Source: Betaproteobacteria bacterium (GTDB lineage: Bacteria; Pseudomonadota; Gammaproteobacteria; Burkholderiales; SG8-41). From it: 64,000 nucleotides of DNA. The stretch spans positions 3,843 through 67,842 of the forward strand of contig OMIN01000058.1 in assembly GCA_900299145.1 (NCBI GenBank), given 5' to 3'. Made by a program: the position numbers and the translations under genes. Under the pieces are notes generated by a model. The model was not told the DNA's origin, did not search any database, and saw only the letters and a program-made list of their open reading frames with translations. Below, one piece after another: positions 3,318-35,729 of this stretch. How positions within the stretch are numbered: position 1 is the stretch's first letter; each line of letters opens with the position of its first letter.

Positions 3318-4961
3318 ATGGATACAGCAGCAGAGGCCGGTAGCGCCGGCACCGGCGCTTCAGCGCGTCTGGATTTCGACGCCATAGTCATCGGCGCGGG
3401 CGTCACCGGGCTGTATCAGCTGTATAAGCTGCGCGAGTTGGGCGTGCGGGTACGTGCGTTCGAAGCCGGCAGCAGGGTGGGTGGCACCTGGTACTGGAAC
3501 CGCTACCCCGGCGCCCGCTTCGATTCGGAAAGCTGGACCTACGGCTACGCGTTTTCCAGAGAACTGCTCAACGAGTGGGACTGGAGCGAACACTTTGCAC
3601 CCCAGCCCGAAACCGAGAGATATCTTAATTTTGTCGCCGACAAGTTTGATTTGCGCCGCGACATTCAATTCAATACGCGCGTGACCGCCGCGCACTACCG
3701 CGAAGACACACGCAACTGGGAAATCACCCTTCACGACGGCAGCCGCCGCACGACGCGGTTTCTGGTGACCGCCATCGGCATACTTTCCGCACCGGTGATG
3801 CCGAACATTCCCGGGGTTGAGTCGTTCAAGGGCCAATCCTGCCACACGCACAATTGGCCGAAAGAAACGGTGAGTTTTGCCGGCAAGCGCGTTGGCATTA
3901 TTGGCACCGGCGCCACCGCCGTGCAGATTATCCAGACGATAGCGAAAACCGTTGGCCATCTGACGATATTTCAGCGCACGCCGAACTGGTGCGCGCCGCT
4001 CAACAACAGCAGGATTTCCACGGAAGAAATGCGCGGCATACGCGCTCGCTATGGCGAAATACTCGCGCGCTGCCGCGAAACCCCCGGCTGCTATGTGCAT
4101 TCCACTGACCCGCGCTCGACACTCAACACCACGCCCGAAGAGCGCACGGCGTTTTGGGAAAAGCGTTACGCTTCGCCCGGCTTTGGTTTCTGGCAGGGCA
4201 ATTTTCAAGACATGCTGACCGACCGCGCCGCCAACGCGCTGGCGAGCGAATTCATCGCCAACAAGATTCGTAGCCGCGTGCATGACCCGGTGGTCGCCGA
4301 AAAGCTGATTCCGAAAGACCACGGCGTCGGCATGCGCCGGCAGCCGCTGGAGACCGGCTACTACGAAGTCTACAACCAGCCCAACGTCGAACTGGTCGAT
4401 GTCAGGGAAACGCCCATCGAGCGGGTAACCGCTGCCGGCATACAAACCAGCGCAAAGGCCCACGACTTCGACATCATCATTTACGCCACCGGCTTTGACG
4501 CCATTACCGGCACGTTTGACCGCATGGATATCCGGGGCGTCAATGGTCTGAGGCTGAAAGAGGTTTGGGCCAACGGGCCGCAAACGTATTTGGGCGTGTT
4601 CGTGCAGGGCTTTCCGAACCTGTTGATGGCAATGGGGCCGCATGCCGGCCTTGGCAATTACACGCGCTGCGCGGAATACAGTGTCGAGTGGGTGACGGGT
4701 GTCATTCAATATGCGACGCAGCGCGGGCTCACCCGAGTTGCAGCGACTGCCGAAGGCGTGCGCGAATGGACCGATTACGTGCTGGGTCTGGGGCAGGGCC
4801 AGCTCATGAACGAAACCGGCTCGTGGATGACCGGCGTCAACCGCAATCTCGAAGGCAAGCAAACGCCCAGAATCATGCGCTACAGCGGCGGCCATCCGGC
4901 GTACCGGGAACACTGCGATGCGGTTGCGGCGGCGGGTTATCCGAGGCTAGCGCTGGCCTAG
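3318..4961 (+). CDS. Type I Baeyer-Villiger monooxygenase (cyclohexanone monooxygenase-like flavoprotein)
   Basis: N-terminal GAGVTG FAD fold. BVMO fingerprint FxGxxxHxxxWP present as FKGQSCHTHNWP. Second Rossmann motif GIIGTGATA. Confidence 0.9.
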   Translation: MDTAAEAGSAGTGASARLDFDAIVIGAGVTGLYQLYKLRELGVRVRAFEAGSRVGGTWYWNRYPGARFDSESWTYGYAFSRELLNEWDWSEHFAPQPETERYLNFVADKFDLRRDIQFNTRVTAAHYREDTRNWEITLHDGSRRTTRFLVTAIGILSAPVMPNIPGVESFKGQSCHTHNWPKETVSFAGKRVGIIGTGATAVQIIQTIAKTVGHLTIFQRTPNWCAPLNNSRISTEEMRGIRARYGEILARCRETPGCYVHSTDPRSTLNTTPEERTAFWEKRYASPGFGFWQGNFQDMLTDRAANALASEFIANKIRSRVHDPVVAEKLIPKDHGVGMRRQPLETGYYEVYNQPNVELVDVRETPIERVTAAGIQTSAKAHDFDIIIYATGFDAITGTFDRMDIRGVNGLRLKEVWANGPQTYLGVFVQGFPNLLMAMGPHAGLGNYTRCAEYSVEWVTGVIQYATQRGLTRVAATAEGVREWTDYVLGLGQGQLMNETGSWMTGVNRNLEGKQTPRIMRYSGGHPAYREHCDAVAAAGYPRLALA

Positions 4962-10302: not shown

Positions 10303-11727
10303 ATGCGGACATATCGTAAGTATCTGTTTTTATTAATATTTTTCTGCGATGCCGCACAAGCCCAACTGCCGCCGCCGGTGGCGCAGGCACTCGCCCGCGC
10401 GGGCATTGCCGAAAGCGGCGTCGGCCTTTATGTGCACGAAGTCGGCGCTGCTGAGCCGGTGGCCGTGCATCGCGGCGACCAGCCGCTTAACCCTGCGTCG
10501 GTGATGAAACTCGTCACCACATACGCCGCGCTGGAACTGCTGGGTCCCGCGCATCAGTGGAGTACCGATCTTTTCACCGACGGCGAGTTGCAGCAGGACA
10601 CGCTCGCCGGCAATGTGTATCTCAAGGGCGGTGGCGATCCCAAGTTCACCATTGAAAATTTCTGGCTGCTGCTGCGTGCGCTGCGTGCCAAAGGCGTGCG
10701 CCAGATCCGCGGTGATCTGGTGCTCGACCGTTCCTTGTTCACCACCGCGCATCCCGATCCCGGCCAGTTTGATAACGAACCGCTGCAACCGTACAACACC
10801 ACGCCCGACGCGCTGCTCGCCAATTTCAAAACCTTCACGCTGACCTTCAAGCCGGAAGCCGATGGTAAAGCGGTCAACGTTACCGTTGACCCGCCGCTGC
10901 CGCAACTGCAAATTGTCAATCAACTCACGGTAAGCGACGGCCCCTGCGGCGGCCTATGGATGAACCGTATCAAAACGCAGGCGCAGGATGCCGGCGACAG
11001 CGCGCGCCTGACACTCGCCGGGCCGTATTCGCGCCAGTGCGGTGAACAGGCGAATTACTACAGCTTGTTGAGCCACCGCGCTTACGCTGCCGGACTGTTT
11101 CAATATTTGTGGCGCGAACTCGGCGGAACATTCAGCGGCCGCGTGCGCGAAGCCGACGTACCACCCGCTGCGGCGAAAATTGCCAGCCAACGTTCACTTG
11201 CGCTGTCTGAAATCGTGCGCGACATCAATAAATTCAGTAACAACGTGATGGCGCGGCAACTGCTGCTGTCTGTAGGCTTAACGACGGGCGCATCCGGCGG
11301 CGGCGCGCAATCGACACCTGAACGTGGCGCCCAAGCCGCGCGGCAATTCTTCGCCAGCAAGAACCTGCCGATGCAGCAACTGGTGATTGAAAATGGCTCC
11401 GGCCTGTCGCGCATCGAACGCGTCAGCGCGCGCGATCTCGGCCAGATGCTACTAAGCGCCTGGCGCAGTCCGGTAATGCCGGAATTCATGGCGTCCATGC
11501 CGCTGGTCGGTGTTGACGGCACCATGGTCCGGCGCCTGAAAAATTCCGACGTCGCCGGACAAGCCCACATCAAAACGGGCCTCATCAACGGCGTGCGCGC
11601 GCTGGGTGGTTATGTGCTGGATGCCAGGGGAAAGCGCGTGGTTGCCGTGCTACTGATCAATCATGCCAACGCGCACAATGCGAATCTGGTGCAGGATGCT
11701 TTTTTGCGTTGGGTGCATGCCCGATAG
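10303..11727 (+). CDS. dacB: D-alanyl-D-alanine carboxypeptidase/endopeptidase (PBP4 family)
   Basis: SxxK (SVMK), SxN (SNN) and KTG motifs in order. Start set at ATG 10303 (MRTYRKYLFLLIFFCDAAQA signal peptide). The upstream part of the track ORF overlaps the bioA 3' end. Confidence 0.85.
   Translation: MRTYRKYLFLLIFFCDAAQAQLPPPVAQALARAGIAESGVGLYVHEVGAAEPVAVHRGDQPLNPASVMKLVTTYAALELLGPAHQWSTDLFTDGELQQDTLAGNVYLKGGGDPKFTIENFWLLLRALRAKGVRQIRGDLVLDRSLFTTAHPDPGQFDNEPLQPYNTTPDALLANFKTFTLTFKPEADGKAVNVTVDPPLPQLQIVNQLTVSDGPCGGLWMNRIKTQAQDAGDSARLTLAGPYSRQCGEQANYYSLLSHRAYAAGLFQYLWRELGGTFSGRVREADVPPAAAKIASQRSLALSEIVRDINKFSNNVMARQLLLSVGLTTGASGGGAQSTPERGAQAARQFFASKNLPMQQLVIENGSGLSRIERVSARDLGQMLLSAWRSPVMPEFMASMPLVGVDGTMVRRLKNSDVAGQAHIKTGLINGVRALGGYVLDARGKRVVAVLLINHANAHNANLVQDAFLRWVHAR
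10317..10343 (+). repeat. AT-rich dispersed repeat, copy C
   Basis: TAAGTATCTGTTTTTATTAATATTTTT. Lies inside the first 14 codons of dacB. Confidence 0.9.
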
Positions 11728-13253: not shown

Positions 13254-14225
13254 TTATTCAGGCTGTATCCCGGCATCCTTAATCGCCTTCGCCCACTTTA
13301 CTGTCTCCACGCGCGTGCGCTCGCCCAGCTGGGCTGGCGTGTGCGGGCTGGTCTCCACGCCAAATGCGATGAGCCGGTCCTTGACCTCTTTACTGTTGGC
13401 GGCGTTGTTGAGGGCCGTGTTCAAGCGCTCAATCACCGGTTGCGGCGTGCCGCGCGGGGCATAAGCCGCGAACCAAGCGATCAGTTCATAGCCTTTCAAT
13501 CCGCCGGCTTCTTCCACCGTGGGCAGATCGATGAGCGCGGTGCGCTTTAACGACGTGACCGCCAGACCTTTGATCTTGCCCGCCTTCACCTGCGGCATGG
13601 TTACCGCGAGGTCAGCGGTGAACATCATCACCTGCCCCGCGATCAAATCGGTGATGGCGTGCGGCGAGCTCTTATACGGCACCATGGTCAGCTTGATGCC
13701 TGCCATATTGGCGAACATTTCCGTCGACACGCGCTGCGAGGTGCTGGCAGACGCATACAGAAACTCGCCTGGCTTCGATTTTGCCAGTGCGATCATGTCT
13801 TTCAGGTTTTTTACCGGCAGCGTATTGTTGACCGCGACAATCAGCGGCACCGACCCTAAAAACGCGATTGGCACGAAATCCTTGTCCTGATCGTACGGCA
13901 GCTTTTTGTACAAACTCACCAGTGCGGCGTTGGTGCTGTTGGTGCCGCACAAGATGGTGTAGCCGTCGGGCGCGGCTTTGGCCACCGCCTCCGCGCCGAT
14001 CATACCGTTGGCGCCGGGGCGGTTGTCGATTACGCCAGCCTGGCCCAGTAGCTCGTTGAATTTGGCGGTGTAACTGCGCCCCACGGTGTCGGTGGCGCTG
14101 CCGGCAGCGAACGGCACCACAACGCGGATGGCTTTGGACGGGTACGACTGCGCTACGGCAGCGCAGGGCAGGCAAGCGGCCCACGCCAGCGCGGCAGCCA
14201 TGGGCATGCAACGATACGAACGCAT
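13254..14225 (-). CDS. Bug/TctC-family periplasmic substrate-binding protein
   Basis: Signal peptide, then SYPSKAIRVVVPFAAGSATD, DNRPGANG and PYKSS motifs. Confidence 0.9.
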   Translation of the reverse strand: MRSYRCMPMAAALAWAACLPCAAVAQSYPSKAIRVVVPFAAGSATDTVGRSYTAKFNELLGQAGVIDNRPGANGMIGAEAVAKAAPDGYTILCGTNSTNAALVSLYKKLPYDQDKDFVPIAFLGSVPLIVAVNNTLPVKNLKDMIALAKSKPGEFLYASASTSQRVSTEMFANMAGIKLTMVPYKSSPHAITDLIAGQVMMFTADLAVTMPQVKAGKIKGLAVTSLKRTALIDLPTVEEAGGLKGYELIAWFAAYAPRGTPQPVIERLNTALNNAANSKEVKDRLIAFGVETSPHTPAQLGERTRVETVKWAKAIKDAGIQPE

Positions 14226-18709: not shown

Positions 18710-20047
18710 ATGCGCCGCTGGTTAGCCGTTTTACTGACGACTCTGACGGGCGCTGTGTTGGCGCAAGTGCCGCCATTGTCACTTACCGCCGTGCAATTGC
18801 GTTTTGATCCGGCATCGCTGCCGCAGGCCATGGCGGCGTACCGCCTGTGGCTCGCCAGCGGGCGCGGCGTGGCCTTGAGTGATGCCGCGATGGCGATGGT
18901 GGCGCCGGGCATATCGTTGAACGCCGCCAATCACGCGCAATACGCGCCAAGAATACAACCCATGATCGCCGCCGTCGGCAAGCGCCTTGCCGACGGCAAC
19001 GCCGACAAGGCCGAATCGGAAGCAGATGCCGCGCGGCGGTTGGGCGCGATGCTCGCTGCCACTGAATGGCAGGCGCTGATCGAAGGCGCGCGACCGGCAA
19101 ATGCCGCGGCGCAATCTTACGTGGACGCCACGCTCGCCATCGCCATGCTGACATCGGCGGGCATCGGCGAGCAGACTTCGCCCGATGCCTCGCGGCTGTG
19201 GGCGCGCGTGCGTGGTATGGCAAGCGCCTACGATCCGGCGGCGGGCAAGGGGCGTTTGCAGCCCGCGGCGTCCACTGCGGAGGCCGCTTTCGACAAGCTG
19301 AAGTCGGCTGTTGAACAAACCGTCCGCGCGCAGCGGGCGCGTTCCGCCGCTGCCGCCTTGGCGCTGGCGCGCGAGTTGTATCCGGATTACGCCAGCGGGA
19401 AGGCGCGCCAGATAGGCAGCGCGGCAAAGATCGAGGCACTGATCGAAGCTTTGCGCATGCCGGAACTCGCGCGATTTTACGGCGCGTTATGGGCCGACAT
19501 CCATGCGTTGGAAGTGCAACTGCGCGTGCATGAACTGGCCCGCGCGGCAGGCCGCCCGGAAAACTGGGACAGTGACGGTACTCGCCGGCCGCGCATGACG
19601 GAATTCATCCTGCCGCGCGTGCAAAAACTCGGTGCTGATGCGCCCACGTCAGATGCGCTGGCGGGCATGCTCACCGAACTGATTTCCGACGTGGACGCCG
19701 ACTGGATGCGTGTTGAAGCTGCCAGCGCGCGCGGTCAAAAGCTGATGCCCACGGTGGAGCGACTCATCATAGCCAGCTTCTGGCGGCGCGGCATTGAGCC
19801 CGCGCGTGCGTGGGCGGGCAACGCCTACCGCGCAGGCGACATTGCGCAGGACGCCATCAACGCGCTGCGTGGCGACCCGAACGGGCGCGATGCCGTGATG
19901 AAGCGGCTGGAACCGCTCGAGCAAAAATCGCAGCCGGTGTACGAGCGCTGGCTCAACTATCAGGTCTCACGCACGCGCGCGGCGGTGCAGCAGGTCATGC
20001 AGCGGGACACCAAGGAAATACGCGCGTTACTCGATAGTCTAAAATAG
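18710..20047 (+). CDS. Hypothetical secreted Ala-rich helical protein
   Basis: Signal peptide MRRWLAVLLTTLTGAVLAQ. No family recognised. Confidence 0.55.
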   Translation: MRRWLAVLLTTLTGAVLAQVPPLSLTAVQLRFDPASLPQAMAAYRLWLASGRGVALSDAAMAMVAPGISLNAANHAQYAPRIQPMIAAVGKRLADGNADKAESEADAARRLGAMLAATEWQALIEGARPANAAAQSYVDATLAIAMLTSAGIGEQTSPDASRLWARVRGMASAYDPAAGKGRLQPAASTAEAAFDKLKSAVEQTVRAQRARSAAAALALARELYPDYASGKARQIGSAAKIEALIEALRMPELARFYGALWADIHALEVQLRVHELARAAGRPENWDSDGTRRPRMTEFILPRVQKLGADAPTSDALAGMLTELISDVDADWMRVEAASARGQKLMPTVERLIIASFWRRGIEPARAWAGNAYRAGDIAQDAINALRGDPNGRDAVMKRLEPLEQKSQPVYERWLNYQVSRTRAAVQQVMQRDTKEIRALLDSLK

Positions 20048-20068
20048 TTCAATAAAAACATACACTTA
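20041..20068 (-). repeat. AT-rich dispersed repeat, copy F
   Basis: TAAGTGTATGTTTTTATTGAACTATTTT. Lies between convergent genes and overlaps the TAG stop of 18710..20047. Confidence 0.85.
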
Positions 20069-20115
20069 TGACTAACAAGCCATGCGGCGCCCGGCTTATT
20101 GAGCTAGTCCAGGTT

Positions 20116-20781
20116 TCATTTCAGTTTTCGCAAGGCGTCCTCGATGGCCAAGCCAAACGGCAGCACGTGCGCTTTGTTCCGATCATCACCTGAATACAGT
20201 GATTGTTGGGAAAGGCCGCGAACGACATAAAATTTCCTGGTCAAACCCATGCTCATGACTTCTGCTCCGGCCTGTCCCGTTGTGCCGGTATTGACGGCGC
20301 CTCGTGTCACTACCACATCCAGCAGATATGCCAGCAGATGCCCCTGAAAAGTATTTCTGACTAGAGAATGCGGCGGCATCATGCCTAACATGAGTTGCCC
20401 GATTCCGCCTTGACGATACGAGATTTCGGCAATCGTCATGCGTAGCTGGTCTTTGGCTGCGGGGTCTATGACGTAACAACCCGATGCGTCAATCACCGCT
20501 GTAGCCTCCCGCGTCAACGCCGGCACGTCCAGCCCCAATCCTTCCAATTGTTGCAGCAGTTGAGGTGATACGACCAGTTCAATGGCGGCGCTGCCACGGG
20601 AATATTCGCATTTCAGTGGAGACACGGGTTCAGCCACGCGGCGCTGGTCGGGAGTGGGCGGCGCAATATGCTGGAAACTGAGCTGCGCGAACGCACAGAT
20701 GTCCACCATGCATAGGATCAGCACAGCGATAGCGTGGGACAGGTTTGTTTTCCAGCGCACGGGTGCCGCTGTGAGGCGCAT
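20116..20781 (-). CDS. Hypothetical exported/membrane-anchored protein (visibly lower GC)
   Basis: N-terminal hydrophobic segment AIAVLILCMVDICAFAQ. No family recognised. Confidence 0.5.
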   Translation of the reverse strand: MRLTAAPVRWKTNLSHAIAVLILCMVDICAFAQLSFQHIAPPTPDQRRVAEPVSPLKCEYSRGSAAIELVVSPQLLQQLEGLGLDVPALTREATAVIDASGCYVIDPAAKDQLRMTIAEISYRQGGIGQLMLGMMPPHSLVRNTFQGHLLAYLLDVVVTRGAVNTGTTGQAGAEVMSMGLTRKFYVVRGLSQQSLYSGDDRNKAHVLPFGLAIEDALRKLK

Positions 20782-23138: not shown

Positions 23139-23255
23139 TAACAATGCCTCTCCGCGAGACAAAACCCGCTTCAGGGGACAGGCGCACTGTAACGAATATA
23201 ATCGCGCGGCTCAATACCAGAGTAACCCGCAATCAAACTGACATCCGAGGACACC

Positions 23256-23765
23256 ATGAATATTTCCATGTACAACGCTTCCATTCCCGTCATGATTCGC
23301 ATGCTGGGAAATCTTGAAACCATCCTCGACAAAGCGATTGCCCACGCGGGCGCACGCAAGATCGACGACGCGGCGTTTGTCGAGTCGCGCTTATTTCCGG
23401 ACATGTTCACCTTCGCGCGGCAAATCCGCGTTGCCACAGACATGGCCAAGGGCGCGGGCGCGCGGCTCGCGGGCATTGACATCCCGAAGTTCGAGGACAA
23501 CGAGAAAACCCTGCCCGAACTGAAAGCGCGCGTGCGCAAAGCCATCGACTTTCTGCAAACGTTGACCGCCGCGCAGATCGACGGCAGCGAAGATAAAGCC
23601 ATTACCCTCACCGCCGGCAAGAACACCTTCAATTTCAAGGGGCTCGATTACCTGAACGCGTGGGTGCTGCCGAACTTTTATTTTCATGTCACCACGGCGT
23701 ACAACCTGCTGCGGCACGGTGGCGTGGAGATAGGAAAAATGGATTTTCTGGGCAAGGTGCAGTAG
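23256..23765 (+). CDS. DUF1993-family protein (DinB-like helical bundle)
   Basis: Recognised from memory of the family pattern (MY..SIP......L..L...L.KA, RLFPDMF, NFYFH..TAY..LR..GV.IGK.DFLG). Confidence 0.65.
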   Translation: MNISMYNASIPVMIRMLGNLETILDKAIAHAGARKIDDAAFVESRLFPDMFTFARQIRVATDMAKGAGARLAGIDIPKFEDNEKTLPELKARVRKAIDFLQTLTAAQIDGSEDKAITLTAGKNTFNFKGLDYLNAWVLPNFYFHVTTAYNLLRHGGVEIGKMDFLGKVQ

Positions 23766-23802: not shown

Positions 23803-24795
23803 ATGAGCACGCAGCCGCTGGTGGTGCTGTGGCGCGTGAGCGAACGCTGCAATCTGGCCTGCGCGTTCTGTGCGTATGACCGCAGCCTCGCGCGCGCCCG
23901 CCGCGAGGTCAGCTCAGCGGAGGTGCTGGCGCTGGGCGAAACGCTGGGCCGGTGGCGGCGTGAAACCGGCCGCCGCGTACTGGTCAGTTGGCTGGGTGGC
24001 GAGCCGTTGCTGTGGGCGCCGTTGGCTGAAGTGTCGCGCGTCTACCGCCAGCAGCATGATCTTGCGTTGAGTCTCACCACCAACGGCACGCGTCTGCATC
24101 GTCCTGACGTGCGTGCGTTACTGATGGCGCATTTTGCGGAAATCACCGTGAGTATCGATGGCAAGGGCGGCGTGCATGACGCCTTGCGGGGCAAGCAGGG
24201 GCTTTACGAAGCACTCGTCCGCGCGGTCCGGCAGCTCGCAGTGGAGAAGCGCGCCGCCGGATACGGGCCGTTGCTGCGCGCCAATGTTGTGCTGATGCGC
24301 GACACCATCGCCGGGTTCGCCGATTTGTGCCATGACATCGCAAGCTGGGGAATCGAGGAAATCACCTTCAATCGGTTGGGCGGCGTGGACCGGCCCGAAT
24401 TTTTCCCCGCCCATCACTTGTTGCCGGAGCAGGCCGCAGCCTTTGCGGCAAGCGTGCCGGCACTGCGCCGCGAACTGGCGAGCCGTGGCGTAACGCTGCG
24501 TGGTGCGAACAGCTATCTGGAACGCATTGTCGCCAGCAGCCGTAGTGAACGTTTGGCGCCCGGAGATTGCGCGCCGGGACGTAACTTTCTGTTCATCGAC
24601 GAGACCGGGCGTATCGCCCCTTGTGCGCACACGCCCGCTGACTACGGCATTGCGTTGAAGAGTCTAGCCCGCGAAGAGGGTATCGCTGCCTTGCCGGGCC
24701 GTTTCAGTGACTCGATGTGCCAGCGCCGCTCTGCGGCCTGCGCGGATTGCCACAGCACGCAACACCACGGTAAATTTACCGCGTTAACACCATGA
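23803..24795 (+). CDS. Radical SAM enzyme with C-terminal SPASM/twitch-like Cys cluster
   Basis: CNLACAFCAY (CX3CX2C) near the N-terminus; GGEPLL. C-terminal cysteines in CAPGRNFLFIDETGRIAPC...CQRRSAACADCHS. Confidence 0.85.
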   Translation: MSTQPLVVLWRVSERCNLACAFCAYDRSLARARREVSSAEVLALGETLGRWRRETGRRVLVSWLGGEPLLWAPLAEVSRVYRQQHDLALSLTTNGTRLHRPDVRALLMAHFAEITVSIDGKGGVHDALRGKQGLYEALVRAVRQLAVEKRAAGYGPLLRANVVLMRDTIAGFADLCHDIASWGIEEITFNRLGGVDRPEFFPAHHLLPEQAAAFAASVPALRRELASRGVTLRGANSYLERIVASSRSERLAPGDCAPGRNFLFIDETGRIAPCAHTPADYGIALKSLAREEGIAALPGRFSDSMCQRRSAACADCHSTQHHGKFTALTP

Positions 24796-24801
24796 TGAGC
24801 C

Positions 24802-25392
24802 TTGCTTGCCATGCAACACGCCGGCCCGCCGCTTGAATCGTTGACACGGCGGCTGCTTGATACGCCGCCGGAATTTTTGGCCGAGCCCAAAATTGGCTCG
24901 CGCGGCGTAGTGCACGTGGATGCGCTGCTAGGGGATGTTACGACGATGCTGGGCGAGCGAGCGCCGGCAGGCGAGCTTCGGCGATTTGCAGACCCGGACG
25001 GCGGCGCACGCAATCGACTGGCACTGGCCCAGCTGGCGGCCTGGGTTTGCGCCGATGCGTGGTTTCGCGGAGCGGGCATTGCGCCTGTACGGCTGATACG
25101 CGCGATAGACGCGGCAGCTACGGCGCTGTCGTCGCACGCACCAGCGGCCAGTTTTCTGGCGGATGGCGACCGCCGGGAAGAATTGGTACGCACGCTGCTC
25201 GCCGCGCTGGATCATCGTCCAGCCGATGAATCGATCGAACAGGCGCAAGATCGCCTGGCCAATGTTTCCAGCAGCCAGCGGCAGATTGCCGTGAGCGCCG
25301 CGCGCGGCATGGCCGAGCGGGCGCGCAAAATCCGTGAAGCGCTGGCCCGCAAGGCCGCCGAAGAATCGGCCGACAAAATGTGGCGAGAATGA
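24802..25392 (+). CDS. Hypothetical protein coupled between the rSAM and ligase genes (start TTG 24802 or ATG 24811)
   Basis: Starts 7-16 nt after the rSAM stop. Its TGA overlaps the ATG of the next gene (ATGA at 25389..25392). Ala/Arg/Leu-rich, no family recognised. Confidence 0.55.
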   Translation: MLAMQHAGPPLESLTRRLLDTPPEFLAEPKIGSRGVVHVDALLGDVTTMLGERAPAGELRRFADPDGGARNRLALAQLAAWVCADAWFRGAGIAPVRLIRAIDAAATALSSHAPAASFLADGDRREELVRTLLAALDHRPADESIEQAQDRLANVSSSQRQIAVSAARGMAERARKIREALARKAAEESADKMWRE

Positions 25393-26747
25393 CTGACCCG
25401 GACCCCACCGACGCCGATCGTCACCCGACGCTAAGCGAAGCCGGGCAGCGCATGCTTGATTACCTGGCACAGCACCGGCACGCACCGGTTTTTCGCAACA
25501 AGAGTGGCAGCCGCCTCACTGCCCATGATCTTGCACGGCTGCGCGTATTTGAGGCCGGGGTCGCCGAGGCTGGTTGCGTCGGTCAGCGCGGCGGCGAACC
25601 GCCATGGCTTGCGGATTTCGTGGCGCGTTGTTACGCCGATGTGCCGCACTACAGGGCGCGCGGCGTTGCGCCGTCTGGATTTGAAGCCATTCCCACAACG
25701 CGCCGTGCAGACCTGGCGCACGACATCACCGCTTTTGTGCCCGACAGCGTGGCGCTGGATCGGCTGATTAATTTTCGCACCAGCGGCGTGACCGGCCATC
25801 CGTTGCTGATTCCATCGCATCCGCTGGTGGCGGCGTCTTATTTGGCTTTTCACAGGCTGGCGTTGCGGCGATACGGCATTGAATTGACAGCCGGCCGCAA
25901 TGACGTGGGCGTGGTGCTGCTGGGTTATCAGCGCCAATGCTTCACCTATGTTTCGGTAATTCCGGCAATGGACGAAGCCGGCTACGTGAAGCTCAACCTG
26001 CACCCGGATGACTGGCGCAGCCCCGAGGACCGCGCGCAGTATCTCGACGCGCTGCGTCCGGAGATTTTGTCGGGCGACCCTATCTCATTTTCGGCACTGC
26101 TGGCGCTGTCGATGACATGGAAGCCGCGCGCGCTGGTCTCCACGTCGATGACCTTGTTGCCCGCGCTGCGCAACGAATTGGAGACCCGTTTCAGCTGCCC
26201 TGTGCTTGACGTCTATTCAATGACCGAAGCCGGGCCCATAGGCGTGTACGACGCGTGCGCCGGCGGACACGTGTTGCTGCAGCAACAATTGTTGGTGGAA
26301 ATACTCGACCCCGCCGGCAAACGCGTGCGACTCGGCGAGCGCGGCGAAATCACACTCACCGGCGGATTCAACTTCTGCCTGCCGCTACTACGTTACCGCA
26401 CCGGCGACTACGCCAGCCTTCAAACTCGGAGTAACGAGACTGTCTTGTGCGGACTATCAGGTCGCGCCCCGGTACGATTTCGCACGACTGACGGCGCGTG
26501 GATCAATAACAACGATGTTACCCATGCATTGCGGGCGCTGCCGCTGTGGCAGTATCGTTTGCATCAGCACGCGGACGGGCAACTGCAGTTTGAATATGCC
26601 GTAGATCGGAATATGGACATCGAAGTAACGCGCATTCTGCATGGCATTTTCGGCGCCGATCGTATGCTGGATGTCCGGCAAACCAATTTTGGCAATATCA
26701 AGGTTGTTCCTTACACGTCCGATGCGGTAAGCAACAATGGCATTTGA
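25389..26747 (+). CDS. Adenylate-forming enzyme, PaaK / CapK / coenzyme F390 synthetase-like
   Basis: RTSGVTGHP (AMP-binding loop), YSMTEAGP and RYRTGD motifs in canonical order. Confidence 0.75.
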   Translation: MTDPDPTDADRHPTLSEAGQRMLDYLAQHRHAPVFRNKSGSRLTAHDLARLRVFEAGVAEAGCVGQRGGEPPWLADFVARCYADVPHYRARGVAPSGFEAIPTTRRADLAHDITAFVPDSVALDRLINFRTSGVTGHPLLIPSHPLVAASYLAFHRLALRRYGIELTAGRNDVGVVLLGYQRQCFTYVSVIPAMDEAGYVKLNLHPDDWRSPEDRAQYLDALRPEILSGDPISFSALLALSMTWKPRALVSTSMTLLPALRNELETRFSCPVLDVYSMTEAGPIGVYDACAGGHVLLQQQLLVEILDPAGKRVRLGERGEITLTGGFNFCLPLLRYRTGDYASLQTRSNETVLCGLSGRAPVRFRTTDGAWINNNDVTHALRALPLWQYRLHQHADGQLQFEYAVDRNMDIEVTRILHGIFGADRMLDVRQTNFGNIKVVPYTSDAVSNNGI

Positions 26748-26813: not shown

Positions 26814-29800
26814 CTACCGCCTTCCGTCTCCAAACAGTGCATAGGGCGCCCAAAAGATCGGATGCGCATATGAAAATTCCGGAGATCCCGGCCCGTCAAT
26901 GAGCGCCAGCATCGCGTCATTTAGCGCTTGCGCCCGTGTCATGTCCGGATTCTTTGCATAGCGCTCGAAAATGCCGGTCACAAGCACGCGCGCTGATTCC
27001 GATTCCACGGGCCAGTGCGTGGCCAGCAATGCGCGGCTCCCTGCATAAAAGAAACCCCGCCCCAGACCGGACAGCGCTTCAGCGCCCGCGCCGTCACCCG
27101 ACGCGGTATTGCAAGCGGAGAGCACCACCCAATCCGCGTCCAGCTTGAGTCCCAGCACGTCTTCCAGTGTTAATAGGGGTGATTCCTTTGGGTCATCAGT
27201 CTGGGTCATCGCAAGCGCAGGTTGTGTAAGTCCAGGTAGATCTCCGGGTACCAATCCATGCGTTGCAAACGCCAGTATTCGGCGTTGAGCCAGGTCTATC
27301 GACTTCACGGTGTTTCGCGTTGCGAGGGCGCCAAAGAAAACATCCTGCTTGAAATCCGCGCCCAATACGCGAGCGATGGCTTCAATTTCCTCGCGGGTCT
27401 CGGGTAGCGGCGAAAGGCTGCCATAGGAAACATAATCTACTGCTTGCCGACTGGGATCCCGCGTGGCGGCCACGCGATCGACATTGATGTTGCGTAAACC
27501 GCGGCTGCCGCCCGTTGCCGCCGGCGTCCGGCCAAACTGGGGGTCGCCAAATCCCGCGAAAGCGGTTCTAGTGGCACTGCCTTGCGGTAGTGCGCGCAAT
27601 CGCACAAAGGCATTCACAGACGGCACGTTGGCCACCGCCACTTTGCGAGCTAACCAAGGTGCTACTTTCATCCCAGATAGAGGTTGTACACCTTGATCGG
27701 CATCCGTGCCTACCGTGAAGGACTGCGTTAATGTCAAAGACAGCGGCAATTGACCCAGCACGCCATCGGCCGCGACGACCAGTGTCTTGGCGTCACGCCA
27801 GACCTGCTCGACCGGGGCGAGCAATTCCAAATACAAACGATGAGCAGCCGCGTAATCAAACTGCCGCAATACTGGTAGAGTAACCGAGCCGGGATCTAGC
27901 GTTTGTCTGAGTTTGGCTACGACAGACGCGACCTCTTGAGCAGACATGGAACTGGCGTGAAAAGCCATAGCACCAGCGGGCCTGACCGCCCAGACAAATG
28001 TTTGGCTGGCACCGGGCACGATCAACAACAGTGCTTCATCCGAGGCCAGTGATTTTCGGGCTTCGTCCAGTGCCGCCGGGCGCGGGCTGATCAAATTAGC
28101 ATAATCGGGAAACCCCTCCTCGATGCTCCGAAAAAGCTCGGCACGTTTGCCGGTCAACGCATCGACACGGGCACGCAAGACTTTTACCGCTTCCTCGCGC
28201 TCTTTCGAATCAGCAGCTGTGGCAAGCGCTAGCAATCGATCATTGAGCCCAGCAATTTCCAGTCTGGCATCTTGTTCGCCGCGAATCAAATCACTCAACT
28301 TTGGCGTGCCCGCAAGGGCGCGTGCCGCGCTCGCGGCAAGGGCGGATTGCACGGCACCGCCCAGCATCGCGTCCCCTAGCCGGAACGAATCTTCCACCAT
28401 AGCGGCGCTTTGGAAGGTTCGTGTCTGATATATGAGATCTGCATAGGCTTCAAATATTGCTCGCCGGACATGCCGCCGTAACGCGTCTTCGGCCTCTGTT
28501 TCAGTGCCGCGCCGTCTGGCAGTGAGTGCCGGTAATGCCGCCGCAAAGTAGGAAAATGCCCGGTCAGTATCACCGGTGGCAGCAAGGGCCACCCCCAACA
28601 GTCCTTTCGATTCCGCGGTCTCGTAGCGGTCTGCTCCAAGGAATCGCTCTTGCTCCGCGACAAGCGCTGTCAGCCACGCCGCTGCTTGCCGGGCGCGTCC
28701 CATCCGCAATAGCGCGAGCGCCCACGCAGGTTGCCGCTCGGTGGATTTCAGCAGAAACTCGTCTTCGGTGAGTGATTCCCGCAACTGGTCGATACGATCT
28801 ACGGCCCCACGCCAATCCAGAATTCCTATACGCGAGACTATCGCTACCTGCCGGGAATAGAACGAAAACCCGGCAGAAGCCGGCACGCCAAGTGCTTTCA
28901 TGTCGTCAACCGCTGCGTCGGCTAATGCCGTCGACTCCTGGTATCGCCCCTGGGCCACCAATACTTCACCCAGCGTTGCCAGAGCCAGCGCGGTGGAGGG
29001 TGAATTTCGGCCATAGCGATCGGCGTTGCGGACGATCATCTGGCGGCCAAGCAACTCGGCTTCTTGCAAGCGTCCCTGACGCAGGTGCAATCTGATCAAC
29101 TGCATCTGGATCAGGTCGAGCAACTGCCAGGTAACATCTTCCGCGGGCGAACGCTCGACGGTTTTGCTCCGGCTAGCCGCCAACTTTGTATCGGCCAACG
29201 CATGCGCGTGAGCTGCCTTGAGCGCCCGTTCTCCGGCCTGCACATTGCCGTCCGCCAGCAATGTATCGGCCTTGGCCCACCCCAGCATTGCATTGATCAG
29301 ATCAGTCAAACCGGCTGAGCCTACAAAGCTGCGTCCTTTGCGAATCAGCGCGTCGATACTATCCGTCTGTGTCCGGGCGCTGGAGGTATCGCCAAAGAAC
29401 GTTTGCATGCGCGCGGCCAAGCTTTGCGCCGCAATATCCTGCCCCCACCAGGCAGCGGGTGCACTTGTCACTCGGCGCACGTGAGCATGCGCCCGCGACC
29501 AGTTGCCGGCTGTCATTTCGTTGATTGATAAATCAATCAGATGTTTTGGCAGATTGTGGTCGGTCTGACTGATTTCGACCAACTTTGTACGGGCTTCTAT
29601 CACGGCTGAAAGATGGCCCAGCCGCGCGGCGGCAGCAGCCCGTTCAATTAGGTAGGCTGATTGGACTGCGACAGAAGCGTCCGAGGATGGCGCTTTACGC
29701 GAAAGCGTTTCTTGTGCTTGCGCCGTGTCCGCGGATAACGTCTGCCGCGCCAGCAAATCAAAAATATCTGCAACCGTACGTGGCTGTGCTTGCGCAGAGC

Positions 29801-29852
29801 CTGCCAGTACGACACAGAAAAGGGCGCCGAGGAACAAAGAGGCTTTGGACAC
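26814..29852 (-). CDS. Secreted TPR-repeat CHAT-domain (caspase-like) protease
   Basis: Signal peptide MSKASLFLGALFCVVLAGSAQA. Long helical-repeat N-terminal region. C-terminal CHAT His/Cys dyad context (FATHG ... LSACNTASG). Confidence 0.8.
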   Translation of the reverse strand: MSKASLFLGALFCVVLAGSAQAQPRTVADIFDLLARQTLSADTAQAQETLSRKAPSSDASVAVQSAYLIERAAAAARLGHLSAVIEARTKLVEISQTDHNLPKHLIDLSINEMTAGNWSRAHAHVRRVTSAPAAWWGQDIAAQSLAARMQTFFGDTSSARTQTDSIDALIRKGRSFVGSAGLTDLINAMLGWAKADTLLADGNVQAGERALKAAHAHALADTKLAASRSKTVERSPAEDVTWQLLDLIQMQLIRLHLRQGRLQEAELLGRQMIVRNADRYGRNSPSTALALATLGEVLVAQGRYQESTALADAAVDDMKALGVPASAGFSFYSRQVAIVSRIGILDWRGAVDRIDQLRESLTEDEFLLKSTERQPAWALALLRMGRARQAAAWLTALVAEQERFLGADRYETAESKGLLGVALAATGDTDRAFSYFAAALPALTARRRGTETEAEDALRRHVRRAIFEAYADLIYQTRTFQSAAMVEDSFRLGDAMLGGAVQSALAASAARALAGTPKLSDLIRGEQDARLEIAGLNDRLLALATAADSKEREEAVKVLRARVDALTGKRAELFRSIEEGFPDYANLISPRPAALDEARKSLASDEALLLIVPGASQTFVWAVRPAGAMAFHASSMSAQEVASVVAKLRQTLDPGSVTLPVLRQFDYAAAHRLYLELLAPVEQVWRDAKTLVVAADGVLGQLPLSLTLTQSFTVGTDADQGVQPLSGMKVAPWLARKVAVANVPSVNAFVRLRALPQGSATRTAFAGFGDPQFGRTPAATGGSRGLRNINVDRVAATRDPSRQAVDYVSYGSLSPLPETREEIEAIARVLGADFKQDVFFGALATRNTVKSIDLAQRRILAFATHGLVPGDLPGLTQPALAMTQTDDPKESPLLTLEDVLGLKLDADWVVLSACNTASGDGAGAEALSGLGRGFFYAGSRALLATHWPVESESARVLVTGIFERYAKNPDMTRAQALNDAMLALIDGPGSPEFSYAHPIFWAPYALFGDGRR

Positions 29853-29872
29853 TGCGATTCCCCGCTACCTGA

Positions 29873-30253
29873 TCACTTGACCCGAAATACATAGTTGCAT
29901 TGCCTGCTTTGTCCTTTAAAGGGGCTTTCTTTCGATGCCGGATCGTACTTCATCGAAATACCGCTATCGCGGCAGCCATCGAACGTAAAGCTGTCGTCGC
30001 CGAGCCGGGCTTCCTTCTTGCATGTGCCGCGATCGAAATTATTGATCTCAATAATGACCTTTCCTTCTTCATCGCGAAAAACCAAATGCGACCTGTTAAT
30101 CGATGCTCCGCCTCTACCACAAGCAGATTCAACATCAAATCCATTTGGGGCCAGCAATGCGTCTTTCAACTTCACTGACGACGGTCCGGTTTGTTGAGCT
30201 GACGTGGAATTCGACAACACAGCAATAATCGCCAACACATTTCTGAATTTCAT
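29873..30253 (-). CDS. Small secreted protein with four Cys, immediately upstream of the CHAT gene
   Basis: Signal peptide MKFRNVLAIIAVLSNSTSA. Four Cys residues. AT-rich codon usage compared with neighbours. 20-nt gap to the CHAT gene. Confidence 0.55.
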   Translation of the reverse strand: MKFRNVLAIIAVLSNSTSAQQTGPSSVKLKDALLAPNGFDVESACGRGGASINRSHLVFRDEEGKVIIEINNFDRGTCKKEARLGDDSFTFDGCRDSGISMKYDPASKESPFKGQSRQCNYVFRVK

Positions 30254-30480
30254 ACCCCCTCCGTGACGTGTCTATGGAAACCCGGCAAACCGCTACTGCT
30301 TTCTTCCAGTAAGCGCTGAAAGCGAAGTAGTAGAAACATAAAATAGATTCGCGCTCGCCTTAACCGACGGCACCCCAACATCTTACGCTTCCAGCATCAT
30401 GATCTGTGCACGATCATTCCGAAGATGAATTGAGACGATTCAGAGTGAAAACCACATCTACCGTGACCATGATACGCCCG

Positions 30481-31449
30481 TCATTCTGCCTTAATACCTG
30501 CTGCCCGTATTGTCTTTCCCCATTTCGCAATCTCCTCTATTAACCGCGCTGAAAATGAGTCAGGCGTATTCCCCACCGGTTCCGCCCCTTCCGCCGATAG
30601 CCGCGCTTTCACCTCCGGCAATTGCAGTGCCCGAGACATTTCGCGCTGAACGGTGATGCGTACCGGCAACAGCGTGCCCGCTGGCGCCATCATGCCGTAC
30701 CACTGCGTGACTTCGAAGCCGGGAAAGCCCTGCACAGCGATGGTGGGAATCTCCGGCAATGCTGCCATGCGCGCTCGGCTGGTGACGCCCAGTGCGTTCA
30801 CGCGCCCGCCGCGCAGATGTGGCAGCATGGTCAACGCGCTTGAAATTGCCACATGTACCTGGCCGGCAATAATGTCGGGAAATGCCAGCGCCATGCCCTT
30901 ATAGGGAATATGCTGCATGTCGATACCGGCGGCGGACTTGATCAGCTCCGCTGTCAGATGCACCAGACTGCCCTTGCCGGGCGAGGCGTAGTTGAAAGCC
31001 TGTTTGCCTTTTGCAAGCGCAATGAACTGTTGCAACGTTTTGGCGGGCACGCCGGCATTGACGGCAAACACATAGGGGTTTTCACTCGCCAGACTGACCG
31101 GGGCAAGATCACGCAGTGTGTCGTAATTTACCTTGTACAGCAGTTGGTTGGTAACGAACGTGCTCGACGAAAACAGCAGCGTATGCCCGTCTGGCGCGGC
31201 GCGCGTGGTCAAATCGACTGCAATGCTTCCGCCAGCTCCAGGCCGGTTATCGACAACGAATTGCTGACCCAGCCGCTCGGTCAGCTTTTGCGCCAGCGAG
31301 CGGCCGACGGTATCGGTGCCGCCACCCGCGGCGACCGAGACGATGACACGAACGGGGCGGTTTGGGTAGGCAGCGCCCGCACCCAGCGCCGAGTGCGTGT
31401 TGACGTAGAGCACGGTCAGCAACAGCATGCCCGTGCAACGTGGCCGCAT
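30481..31449 (-). CDS. Bug/TctC-family periplasmic substrate-binding protein
   Basis: AYPNRPVRVIVSVAAGGGTD, DNRPGAGG and PYKG motifs. Start set at ATG 31449 (AAGG RBS); the track start is TTG. Confidence 0.9.
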   Translation of the reverse strand: MRPRCTGMLLLTVLYVNTHSALGAGAAYPNRPVRVIVSVAAGGGTDTVGRSLAQKLTERLGQQFVVDNRPGAGGSIAVDLTTRAAPDGHTLLFSSSTFVTNQLLYKVNYDTLRDLAPVSLASENPYVFAVNAGVPAKTLQQFIALAKGKQAFNYASPGKGSLVHLTAELIKSAAGIDMQHIPYKGMALAFPDIIAGQVHVAISSALTMLPHLRGGRVNALGVTSRARMAALPEIPTIAVQGFPGFEVTQWYGMMAPAGTLLPVRITVQREMSRALQLPEVKARLSAEGAEPVGNTPDSFSARLIEEIAKWGKTIRAAGIKAE

Positions 31450-31490
31450 GTCAACCTTGCAACTTTGCAACGTTTCAACTTCCCAGCTTT

Positions 31491-33747: not shown

Positions 33748-33773
33748 AAATATTGTTTGAAAACAGATACTTA
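33746..33773 (-). repeat. AT-rich dispersed repeat, copy H
   Basis: TAAGTATCTGTTTTCAAACAATATTTTT. Spans the stop of 33013..33747 up to the Bug start at 33778. Confidence 0.8.
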
Positions 33774-33777
33774 TGAC

Positions 33778-34749
33778 ATGCCTATCCTAAAACAACTGGT
33801 TATGTGCGTGCTGCTTGCGGTGGCCGCGACTGCGAGTGCCCAGCCCTTCCCCACCAAACCGATACGCATCATCGCGCCGTTCCCACCCGGTGGCAGTGTC
33901 GATTTCACCGCGCGCGTGGTCGCGCCCAAGCTCGCCGAATCTTTGGGGCAGCAAGTAGTGATCGACAATCGTTCGGGGGCATCCGGCAACATCGGCAGTG
34001 AGTTGGCGGCGCGTGCCGCGCCTGATGGATACACACTGCTCGCGAACACACTGCCTTATGTAACCAACGGCTTTTTGTATAGCCGCATGGCGTACGACGT
34101 CACCCGTGATTTCGTGCCCCTTTCCGTGCTGGCGTCTTCGCCCGCGATGCTGGTGGTGCATCCTTCGGTGCCGGTGAAATCAGTGCGTGAGCTGGTGCAG
34201 TTGGCGAAGAACAAACCGGGCATGTTGAGCTATGCGTCATCCGGCCCGGGCAGCAATCACCATATCGCGGGCGAGCTGATTAACTACCTCGCCAAAGTTG
34301 AAATCGTGCATATTCATTTCAAAGGCGGCGGGCCCGCGGCAGTGGCCAATCTGTCGGGTGAAGTGGGCCTGAACTGGCCCAACGTGATGCAAGCGGTGCC
34401 CTTCATCAAAACGGGCCGCATCCGCGGGCTGGGTGTCACCAGCGCCAAGCGCTCGAAAGCCACGCCGGATGTGCCCGCCATTGCCGAATCCGGCGTCGCA
34501 GGATTGGAGGGCTACGACTTCACGCCGTGGCAAATCATGGCCGCGCCCGCGGGCACGCCTGCGACGATCGTGGCGTTGCTCAACGAACATCTGGTGAAAG
34601 CTATGCGTTCGCCCGAGGTTGCGGACCGCATGGCGCGCGATGGCGCCGACGTCATCGCCAGTTCGCCGGAGCAGGCGGCCAAACACGTGCAATCGGAACT
34701 CGACAAATGGCGCCGCGTGATCAAGGAACGCGGCATGCGCGCGGAGTAA
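33778..34749 (+). CDS. Bug/TctC-family periplasmic substrate-binding protein
   Basis: Signal peptide, then PFPTKPIRIIAPFPPGGSVD and DNRSGASG motifs. ATG 33778; the track's TTG extension reads through repeat copy H. Confidence 0.9.
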   Translation: MPILKQLVMCVLLAVAATASAQPFPTKPIRIIAPFPPGGSVDFTARVVAPKLAESLGQQVVIDNRSGASGNIGSELAARAAPDGYTLLANTLPYVTNGFLYSRMAYDVTRDFVPLSVLASSPAMLVVHPSVPVKSVRELVQLAKNKPGMLSYASSGPGSNHHIAGELINYLAKVEIVHIHFKGGGPAAVANLSGEVGLNWPNVMQAVPFIKTGRIRGLGVTSAKRSKATPDVPAIAESGVAGLEGYDFTPWQIMAAPAGTPATIVALLNEHLVKAMRSPEVADRMARDGADVIASSPEQAAKHVQSELDKWRRVIKERGMRAE

Positions 34750-35729
34750 TGGCGGCGGCTTTGGTACTTTTAGTGCCGTGGGTGTTATCGGCAATGCAGG
34801 GTGCGGCTTACGCGCAGCCCGCGCCTGCGCCATCTTACCCGTCGCGCCCGCTGCGCATGCTCATTCCCGCAGGCGCTGGCGGCGGCGTGGACACCGTCGC
34901 GCGCCTGGTGGGTGCGCAGCTGGCAACCGCGCTCGGCCAGCCGGTCACCATGGACAACCGGCCCGGTGCCGGCACTATGCTCGCTTCCGAACTCACCGCC
35001 AAAGCGCCGCCCGACGGCCACACACTGTTAATGGTGACCAGCAGTCACGCCATCAACGCCGGCATCCACAAAAACCTGCGCTACGATCCGGTGGAAGATT
35101 TTTCAGCCATCGGCTTCGCCGCGACGTTGCCGTTTGTGCTGGTGATACACCCCAGCGTGCCAGCGAAATCCGCACGCGACATCATCGCGCTGGCGCGGCA
35201 GCATCCGGGCAAACTGTATTTTTCGTCGGCAGGCGCGGGCTCGGGTACGCACCTCGCGTTCGAACTCTTTGCCGCACTGTCGAAAATCAGCGCCGTGCAT
35301 GTGCCTTATAAGGGCGGCTCGGCGGCGCTGGTGGATCTGGCGGGCGGCCACGTACAACTGATGTTCAGCAATGTCATCAACTGCATGCCCTATGTGCGCA
35401 ACAAGCGGCTCATCGCACTGGGCATTTCCACGCCGAAGCCGTCACCGCTGTTTCCGGGCCTGCCTGCGGTGGCGGAATCCGGCTTGCCGGGCTATGAAGC
35501 CGACACGTGGTACGGCGTGCTTGCGCCGGCGCGCGTGCCCGCCGACATCGTGACGCGGCTGAATCGCGAGATCAATGCCATTCTGCGCACAGCCGACGTG
35601 CGTGAAAAGCTCGCCGCACAAGGCGCTGAAGTTGCTGTCAGCACGCCGGAAGAATTCGCGGCGCTGATGCGCCGCGAGATTCAAAAGTGGGGCAAAGTTA
35701 CCAGTGGCTTGAAGCTGCAGCTCCAATAA
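34749..35729 (+). CDS. Bug/TctC-family periplasmic substrate-binding protein
   Basis: TAATG overlap with the preceding gene. MAAALVLLVPWVLSAMQGAAYA signal peptide, SYPSRPLRMLIPAGAGGGVD, DNRPGAG and PYKGG motifs. Confidence 0.9.
   Translation: MAAALVLLVPWVLSAMQGAAYAQPAPAPSYPSRPLRMLIPAGAGGGVDTVARLVGAQLATALGQPVTMDNRPGAGTMLASELTAKAPPDGHTLLMVTSSHAINAGIHKNLRYDPVEDFSAIGFAATLPFVLVIHPSVPAKSARDIIALARQHPGKLYFSSAGAGSGTHLAFELFAALSKISAVHVPYKGGSAALVDLAGGHVQLMFSNVINCMPYVRNKRLIALGISTPKPSPLFPGLPAVAESGLPGYEADTWYGVLAPARVPADIVTRLNREINAILRTADVREKLAAQGAEVAVSTPEEFAALMRREIQKWGKVTSGLKLQLQ

Follow-up and report, generated by a model that had tools for sequence, protein, structure and literature searches.

Among the closest described systems, amino-group carrier proteins have the gamma-carboxylate of their C-terminal Glu ligated to a cargo that is later hydrolysed off, and for pearlin carrier peptides loading takes place at the C terminus and a protease does the unloading (PMC9303977). 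We analysed a 64,000-nucleotide stretch of DNA (hereafter the window; positions 3,843 to 67,842 of the forward strand of contig OMIN01000058.1, from the Betaproteobacteria bacterium assembly GCA_900299145.1), which carries at 23803–26747 three plus-strand genes for a radical S-adenosylmethionine (rSAM) enzyme, a 193-aa protein that we call the middle protein, and a PaaK-like adenylate-forming ligase. Pup, a further point of comparison, is a disordered protein of ~64 aa that ends in GG[QE] and is served by the glutamine-synthetase-like enzymes PafA and Dop. The trio forms a reduced yet functional variant of an undescribed but widespread bacterial cluster of six to eight genes, whose constant core is the middle protein with its ligase and in which the rSAM gene is an optional accessory module just upstream.

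Setting this cluster beside the LysW/LysX/LysK, Vzb22 and pearlin (TglA/TglB/TglG) systems, all of them appear to share a dedicated protein that is not an enzyme and for which the C-terminal residue is important (Glu in LysW), an adjoining gene for an ATP-dependent ligase, tailoring enzymes and, in our case in the full clusters, a peptidase. The parts themselves differ: the ligase is of ATP-grasp or PEARL type in those systems and ANL/PaaK-like here, the carrier is a ~55-aa zinc-ribbon protein or a peptide there and would be a 193-aa helical protein of unmatched fold here, and the peptidase is the M20 enzyme LysK in LysW systems, whereas it would be an HExxH-VWA protein with MoxR here, both absent from the window. 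No sequence homology links the components of those systems to our cluster, which holds no zinc-ribbon carrier, no ATP-grasp LysX/ArgX and no M20 LysK. The Pup-proteasome system (Pup, PafA, Dop, Mpa) also sets a protein with a C-terminal Glu beside a ligase, and our full clusters add an AAA+ ATPase and a hydrolase, but they hold no proteasome genes and the likeness is one of logic only. A MoxR gene paired with a metallopeptidase-vWA gene of the same fusion architecture has been noted in group 2.2 jumbo phages (PMC7824862). Our full clusters carry MoxR (AAA_3) and, two genes later, a protein with HExxH and a VWA domain bearing a metal ion-dependent adhesion site (MIDAS), but neither the middle protein nor the ligase was found to have phage relatives.

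The rSAM gene (23803–24795; 330 aa, stop TGA at 24793–24795), the middle gene (24811–25392) and the ligase gene (25389–26747; 452 aa from its ATG) follow one another on the plus strand, and the stop of the middle gene and the start of the ligase gene can be read directly in an ATGA overlap at 25389–25392, as the initial annotation had proposed for a translationally coupled operon. That annotation had also assumed a TTG start at 24802, giving a 196-aa middle protein and a 6-nt gap; because homologues are 193–195 aa long and begin MQH.. or MNR.., and separate gene calls on identical metagenome contigs yield 193 aa, we place the start at ATG 24811 and the gap becomes 15 nt. A DUF1993 gene (23256–23765, +; PF09351, 204.6 bits; family databases were Pfam 2025, NCBIfam release 20 and PADLOC-DB v2) ends 37 nt ahead of the rSAM gene, as first described, and 66 nt separate the ligase gene from a convergent CHAT-TPR gene. 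Given these gaps of 37, 15 and 66 nt and the 4-nt overlap, no intergenic room is left for a precursor-peptide gene, in line with the original failure to see one. The native base composition that had been claimed also stood, with 62–66% GC in the trio and 55–67% in the windows around it. Upstream of DUF1993, a sigma-70-like promoter match (GGGACA-16-TATAAT; 23175–23202, +) fits at 10 of 12 positions and is weak evidence (2 sites in the region against 1.3 expected); since no other match lies ahead of the trio, the DUF1993, rSAM, middle and ligase genes likely share one transcript. Each of the three proteins has hundreds to thousands of homologues and the ratio of nonsynonymous to synonymous substitution (dN/dS) is 0.11–0.30, so the trio does not consist of chance open reading frames (ORFs); the three genes are real and probably co-transcribed. 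An RNA element or riboswitch upstream of the operon was ruled out by an Rfam scan of the window region and seven full clusters, which returned no riboswitch or other RNA element.

When one genome per species was scanned, the middle protein proved to have at least 298 relatives; 80 of these loci were fetched and four from exact look-ups brought the set to 84. Genes were counted by tblastn with reference genes (84 loci) and with all ORFs of ten reference loci (85 sequences), both sets of counts being inflated, like the rSAM/NadR-like pattern given further below, by ~30 Janthinobacterium genomes. The loci come from Oxalobacteraceae, other Burkholderiales, Lysobacterales, Sphingomonadales, delta-proteobacterial (Desulfobacterota-type) lineages, Myxococcota, Verrucomicrobiota, Gemmatimonadota/Longimicrobium, Acidobacteriota and Chloroflexota. 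Carriers in culture include Paucimonas lemoignei DSM 7445 (middle protein EDC30_11097), Massilia sp. Root418 (ASC94_28895) and Janthinobacterium. Their usual gene order is a MoxR-type AAA+ protein (AAA_3, ~526 aa; 68/85 sequences), an undescribed ~335-aa protein (X; 72/85), a ~600-aa HExxH-VWA protein (74/85), optionally the rSAM enzyme (35/85), the middle protein (85/85), the ligase (82/85), optionally the transporter-family protein PnuC (36/85), and a NadR-like protein (nicotinamide mononucleotide adenylyltransferase/riboside kinase; 66/85), with no conserved gene beyond those eight among the 85 sequences. The middle gene adjoins the ligase gene in 83 of the 84 loci, usually overlapping it. 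The rSAM gene is found in 36 of 82 scorable loci and absent from 46, so that the co-occurrence of all three genes expected from the window does recur, in those 36 loci, although the constant unit is the middle protein with the ligase. A neighbour-joining tree built on the ligase shows at least nine gains or losses of rSAM, whose presence is tracked by no residue in either the middle protein or the ligase. Missing from so many loci and changing so often, rSAM is not the defining element of the system.

The sole locus in which another gene splits the middle–ligase pair is L030, from a Desulfuromonadales metagenome-assembled genome (MAG), where a predicted membrane protein of 151 aa is encoded at 10564–11019. 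An extra conserved small gene between the two was considered and rejected, as the wider spacings in L030, L040 and L047 come in one case from a membrane ORF specific to a lineage and in the other two from assembly frameshifts.

The window lineage consists of freshwater Burkholderiales; the window organism itself is uncultured and was seen on 16 metagenome contigs. Both the window and its closest relatives, the Burkholderiales MAG loci L005–L008, have just DUF1993, rSAM, the middle gene and the ligase gene, with none of the MoxR, X, VWA, PnuC and NadR-like genes anywhere in the 64-kb window or in the four related loci. The window proteins nevertheless belong to the cluster families: they align with them end to end, with the ADKWxRE-type tail on the middle protein and the PaaK-like ligase directly after it. 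Comparing the five genomes, the trio is 62–77% identical in amino-acid sequence to L005–L008, whereas the flanking genes are mostly 85–94% identical (75–94% overall) with dN/dS of 0.04–0.18, values that the trio exceeds 2–4 times. The purifying selection and this contrast in identity and dN/dS indicate that the trio is maintained as a functional unit, yet evolves faster than its neighbours.

Such faster evolution is what one might see in a conflict or defence system, here one sensing or manipulating nicotinamide adenine dinucleotide (NAD) with MoxR and VWA as a regulatory chaperone pair, and the patchy distribution over many phyla with modular gain and loss, as well as the attached NAD salvage genes, would suit it too; MoxR-vWA pairs are reported from conflict systems (PMC7159879). 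We consider this very unlikely, as the locus sits in a syntenic housekeeping context under purifying selection and encodes no recognisable effector or toxin domain, and no relatives turned up in viral contigs or phage records. Among the eight proteins, PADLOC left the middle protein, ligase, MoxR, X, VWA and NadR-like families unmatched, and returned just a generic match of the rSAM core (residues 7–121, 44.8 bits) to pVip. A phage or mobile origin of the genes was likewise ruled out, with no relatives in viral contigs and just two weak phage matches to the ligase.

The middle protein, for which no family had been recognised at first sight, indeed matches nothing in Pfam, NCBIfam or PADLOC. 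A word-indexed search yielded 583 homologues (691 representatives at 50% clustering), all of them standalone proteins of ~195 aa. Its AlphaFold 2 (AF2) model is confident (predicted local distance difference test score, pLDDT, 88.7) and all-alpha with a long C-terminal helix; Foldseek found no fold relatives of it in PDB or BFVD (best E 0.7–0.9), a PDB profile search gave no match, and hhalign showed it to be unrelated to the 335-aa and HExxH-VWA families. The best-conserved stretch of the family is its end, where the last ~20 residues (IREALARKAAEESADKWxRE) are conserved at every position of the alignment, forming in the window protein the near-invariant helix IREALARKAAEESADKMWRE-COOH (25330–25389, +) that closes on a free Glu. 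The consensus usually finishes in ADKWxRE-COOH and the window version in ADKMWRE. Glu or Asp is terminal in 259 of 265 full-length middle proteins (98%), and R[ED] in 250 of the 265 (94%); the six exceptions are three proteins with one extra Trp (..REW) and three with unrelated C-terminal sequence, which may be frameshifted calls. In the reduced clade, which has no VWA or MoxR gene nearby, all five genomes keep the ADKMWRE ending and a tail identical bar one R-to-K change, despite middle proteins that are only 62–77% identical overall.

The ligase directly downstream shows the conserved A3, A5, A7 and A10 motifs of the ANL superfamily, with TSGVTGHP at 25779–25802, YSMTEAGP at 26214–26237 and YRTGD at 26394–26408 (all +), and 20 homologues keep FRTSGVTGHP, YSMTEAGP, YRTGD, GR.P and K..(Q/P)YTSD. 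It scores just under the gathering cut-off of PF00501 (27.5 bits against 29.9), and its profile matches PaaK 2y4o at E 2e-15, the best PDB sequence matches being PaaK 2y4o, 2y27 and 9s3l. Judged by these motifs and profiles, it is an ANL enzyme distantly related to PaaK, but not PaaK. Of the PaaK/F390-synthetase likeness first assigned to it, the adenylate-forming motifs and the relation to PaaK therefore held, while the F390 synthetase part did not (TIGR03335, 13.1 bits against 458.7). The ANL fold and core motifs are common to it and the other PaaK-type ligases (NatL2, AjiA1, BagE, the DVU_1553 family, F390 synthetase); it departs from the type in a P-loop TGTTGHP without the usual Lys and in a longer conserved N-terminal region; its coupling to the 193-aa protein is constant, and a paa context never occurs.

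Public records name its orthologues 'phenylacetate-CoA ligase', 'AMP-binding', 'CapK' or 'hypothetical', and homologues from the cluster are also labelled 'AdoMet-dependent heme synthase', which would make the locus ordinary metabolism, a phenylacetate-CoA ligase or CapK accompanied by a heme-synthase or MoaA-like rSAM enzyme. This is barely conceivable in view of the scores against the curated models, which rule out the PaaK, F390 synthetase, CapK and heme-synthase names: the ligase reaches 37.2 bits against a cut-off of 646.3 for PaaK (TIGR02155), and 84.6 against 300 for its best NCBIfam match, the DVU_1553 family (NF045666), and the rSAM enzyme reaches 56–66 bits against 500–515 for AhbD and NirJ. 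No paa genes occur in the window or in the 84 loci, and no heme or capsule genes lie nearby.

We tentatively favour a reading in which the middle protein acts as a partner or carrier dedicated to the ANL-type ligase, to which it presents its C-terminal tail, with rSAM as an optional tailoring enzyme; a fixed acidic C-terminus encoded beside a coupled carboxylate-adenylating enzyme makes a partner whose tail enters the ligase the simplest interpretation. The original suggestion that the middle protein could be a scaffold or the substrate itself was a guess, and gains support from the near-invariant tail with its free Glu. As we picture it, the helical middle protein would offer this tail to the ligase, which would activate a carboxylate as its acyl-adenylate at the cost of ATP, using either the terminal Glu itself or a small acid held beside it, and would then join the activated carboxylate to an acceptor. 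The rSAM enzyme could add an optional radical tailoring of the attached or accepted group. Where the cluster is full, release or remodelling of the loaded middle protein would fall to the HExxH-VWA protein and MoxR, and PnuC with NadR would supply a pyridine nucleoside or nucleotide; the window lineage would have just the ligation and tailoring part left. To summarize the whole, we infer an adenylation and carrier-type system with a MoxR-VWA accessory, comprising three protein families that lack any description.

A more specific version, in which the 193-aa protein is a new carrier or tag whose C-terminal Glu is activated by the ANL enzyme, of a class not known to load protein C-termini, and joined to a cargo or target, the cargo being related to a pyridine nucleoside, tailored by the twitch rSAM and/or the NadR-like enzyme and unloaded by the MoxR-driven HExxH-VWA protein, seems to us unlikely. 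If it is true, carrier-protein-assisted biosynthesis or tagging would have arisen independently a third time, LysW/AmCP and pearlins (or Pup) being the earlier cases.

Several observations weigh against a carrier. No peptidase for release is encoded within the 64 kb of the window. The carrier systems that we know of use ATP-grasp or PEARL ligases and not ANL enzymes. The Glu need not be strictly terminal, as the three ..REW members indicate, one of which sits in a complete cluster with a ligase (L091). AF2 models the tail as a helix continuous with the protein and not as a floppy tail. The free acidic C-terminal residue could instead be a MIDAS ligand of the VWA protein. Finally, the carrier idea alone leaves the pyridine-nucleotide genes unexplained.

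Turning to the rSAM enzyme, the CX3CX2C motif first reported for it is present as CNLACAFC (residues 16–23; 23848–23871, +), the ligands of the cluster ([4Fe-4S]) that binds S-adenosylmethionine, and PF04055 is matched at 49.6 bits against a cut-off of 29.5, which places it in the radical SAM superfamily. Seventeen diverse orthologues share invariant C16/C20/C23, GGEP, C176, C256, C274, C313 and C316, the last four forming a twitch-like auxiliary cluster region (C256-X12-G-X4-C274 ... C313-X2-C316; 24568–24750, +) recognised by Cys conservation, while C306, a fifth C-terminal Cys of the window protein, varies among the 17 homologues. The SPASM domain is defined by a seven-Cys pattern (CX9-15GX4C ... 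CX2CX5CX3C ... C) with two auxiliary clusters, and the twitch domain is its shortened counterpart, with 3–4 Cys and a single auxiliary cluster. With four conserved C-terminal Cys, not seven, and no SPASM match in Pfam (E <= 0.1) or NCBIfam, the SPASM assignment is excluded, so that of the earlier 'SPASM/twitch-like' description the auxiliary Cys cluster remains, as a 4-Cys twitch-type domain predicted to hold one auxiliary cluster. The match to the N_Twi_rSAM model is weak (41 bits against a cut-off of 170) and does not assign the enzyme to that family. It shares CX3CX2C and a short C-terminal domain with four Cys with the twitch enzymes SkfB, BlsE, BtrN and MoaA, but at <22% identity, and differs from them in an extra invariant Cys176 and in being optional within its own system.

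Whether such an enzyme could act on the middle protein itself bears on a reading of the locus as protein modification, akin to that of peptides made by the ribosome and modified after translation (RiPPs): the middle protein would be the rSAM substrate, undergoing a cross-link, an epimerisation or conversion to a protein-derived cofactor, with the ligase acting before or after. The genes are adjacent and coupled, and the highly conserved segment of the middle protein could be the modification site. The AF2 model of the rSAM enzyme (pLDDT 85.9) is closest in fold to the RiPP maturase SkfB (6efn; template-modelling score 0.71) and to BlsE (7vob), followed by CteB, SuiB, DesII, viperin and anSME, and weak matches exist to PapB, YhhB and MftC-type models. 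We nevertheless judge this reading distinctly unlikely. The enzyme opens directly with the rSAM core and has no RiPP recognition element (RRE), which SkfB does have, or other leader-binding domain; this and the twitch domain weaken the analogy to PqqE/MftC/anSME-type peptide maturases drawn in the initial annotation. It reaches no NCBIfam equivalog cut-off (best 72 bits against 395, TIGR04053), and those of the maturases are all missed by a factor of at least 4 (PapB 63 against 340, MftC 52.5 against 265, anSME 46 against 349); a maturase of RiPPs or cofactor precursors is thus indicated neither by these scores nor by a precursor gene or an RRE. The middle protein stays unchanged in the 46 of 82 loci without rSAM, with no residue following its presence, and, with 193 aa and a confidently predicted fold, is a protein rather than a peptide. 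It has one Cys and no Tyr in the window version, and its conserved tail lacks Cys, which sactionine-type rSAM maturases usually employ as the donor residue. Returning to the partner or carrier reading, the missing peptide-recognition domain and a resemblance to small-substrate twitch enzymes as much as to maturases suggest that rSAM would tailor the cargo or acceptor.

The remaining genes of the full clusters point partly elsewhere. In the N-terminal half of the ~600-aa protein lies an invariant HEIGHH (HExxH) site, and its C-terminal VWA domain bears a DxSGS MIDAS motif; PDB profile searches gave no match for this protein or for the 335-aa protein, and scanning all members of both families against Pfam returned just weak VWA_2 matches, in 9 of 16 members. 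PnuC passes its NCBIfam cut-off (63 bits against 42). The NadR-like protein matches TIGR01526 over its full length at 148 bits, below cut-off, and keeps GKFxPLHRGH and GGESSGKT, that is, intact HxGH and Walker A motifs. Among loci with adequate flanks, 12 carry rSAM alone, 44 NadR-like alone, 21 both and none neither (raw Fisher p 1e-5, uncorrected for phylogeny, and NadR could lie elsewhere in the genome), a pattern that hints at partly interchangeable roles of the two.

These genes lend themselves to a small-molecule pathway, which we regard as possible though doubtful, leading to a cofactor or metabolite derived from a pyridine nucleoside or nucleotide. The ligase would adenylate a small carboxylic acid, the rSAM or NadR-like enzyme would make or tailor the nucleoside or nucleotide partner, the middle protein would be a non-catalytic subunit or regulator of the ligase, and MoxR, the HExxH-VWA protein and the 335-aa protein would form a chelatase or metal-insertion chaperone following CobST/BchID, NorQD or Lar-like logic. 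It is supported by the common role of MoxR-VWA pairs in inserting metals or cofactors, the PnuC score, the full-length NadR-like protein with intact motifs in 66 of 85 clusters, and the fact that no scorable locus lacks both rSAM and NadR-like genes. The rSAM enzyme, free of an RRE, has as its best PDB sequence match BlsE, a nucleoside-sugar enzyme, and the characterised PaaK-like enzymes matched in PDB all act on small acids. Such a pathway, however, leaves the fixed C-terminal end of 98% of middle proteins unexplained, and NadR and PnuC act on amide forms, which have no free carboxylate. The window lineage, moreover, keeps the trio under selection with no NadR, PnuC, MoxR or VWA genes nearby, and the rSAM/NadR pattern is subject to the limits given with it above.

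Further NAD- or ADP-ribose-related genes were seen a few kb or less from some full clusters: a dinitrogenase reductase ADP-ribosyltransferase (DRAT) gene at 13653–14510 of L091, and at 14013–18168 of L004 genes for NADAR, two ADP-ribosylglycohydrolases and an NrtR-like Nudix regulator. As other loci do not conserve them, they may be coincidence.

Full-text searches for the gene combination found no literature description of this gene set, and with no NCBIfam equivalog cut-off reached and no PADLOC model, the trio stands as unnamed as it was first thought to be. About 300 species-representative genomes or more carry the cluster, whose middle, 335-aa and HExxH-VWA families have neither a Pfam or NCBIfam model nor any literature that we found, and whose other genes go under the mistaken names phenylacetate-CoA ligase, CapK or heme synthase. 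Were the carrier reading true, it would bring a new protein-carrier or tagging chemistry and a new link between nicotinamide riboside/NAD salvage, MoxR-VWA chaperones and radical SAM enzymes; even if it fails, a new ligase–partner pair has been defined and a widespread annotation corrected.

As for the surroundings of the trio in the window, DUF1993 was rejected as a part of the system, since it is syntenic only in the window's clade, standing upstream of the trio in L005–L008 alone (4/84 loci), where it is 86–93% identical. The CHAT-TPR gene was rejected as well, being absent even from those four loci. It encodes at 26814–30253 (-) a 1012-aa TPR+CHAT protein (PF12770, 158.8 bits), preceded at 29873–30253 (-) by a 126-aa ORF with a signal-peptide-like N-terminus, and GC falls to 48–53% at 29500–30499, just upstream of the two. 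Both genes are absent from the syntenic L005–L008 and present in all identical metagenome contigs, and they look like a lineage-specific insertion beside the trio. A second small insertion may lie at 18710–20781, where ORFs of 445 aa (18710–20047, +) and 221 aa (20116–20781, -) without Pfam match stand between recG and an acyl-CoA dehydrogenase pair in a stretch whose GC swings from 68% to 51%; they have no counterpart in L005, L007 and L008, in which the recG and dehydrogenase genes lie closer together. The window further holds four paralogous genes for TctC/Bug-family periplasmic receptors (13254–14225, 30481–31470, 33757–34749 and 34527–35729), mutually 35–42% identical, such paralogues being typical of Alcaligenaceae/Comamonadaceae-type Burkholderiales.

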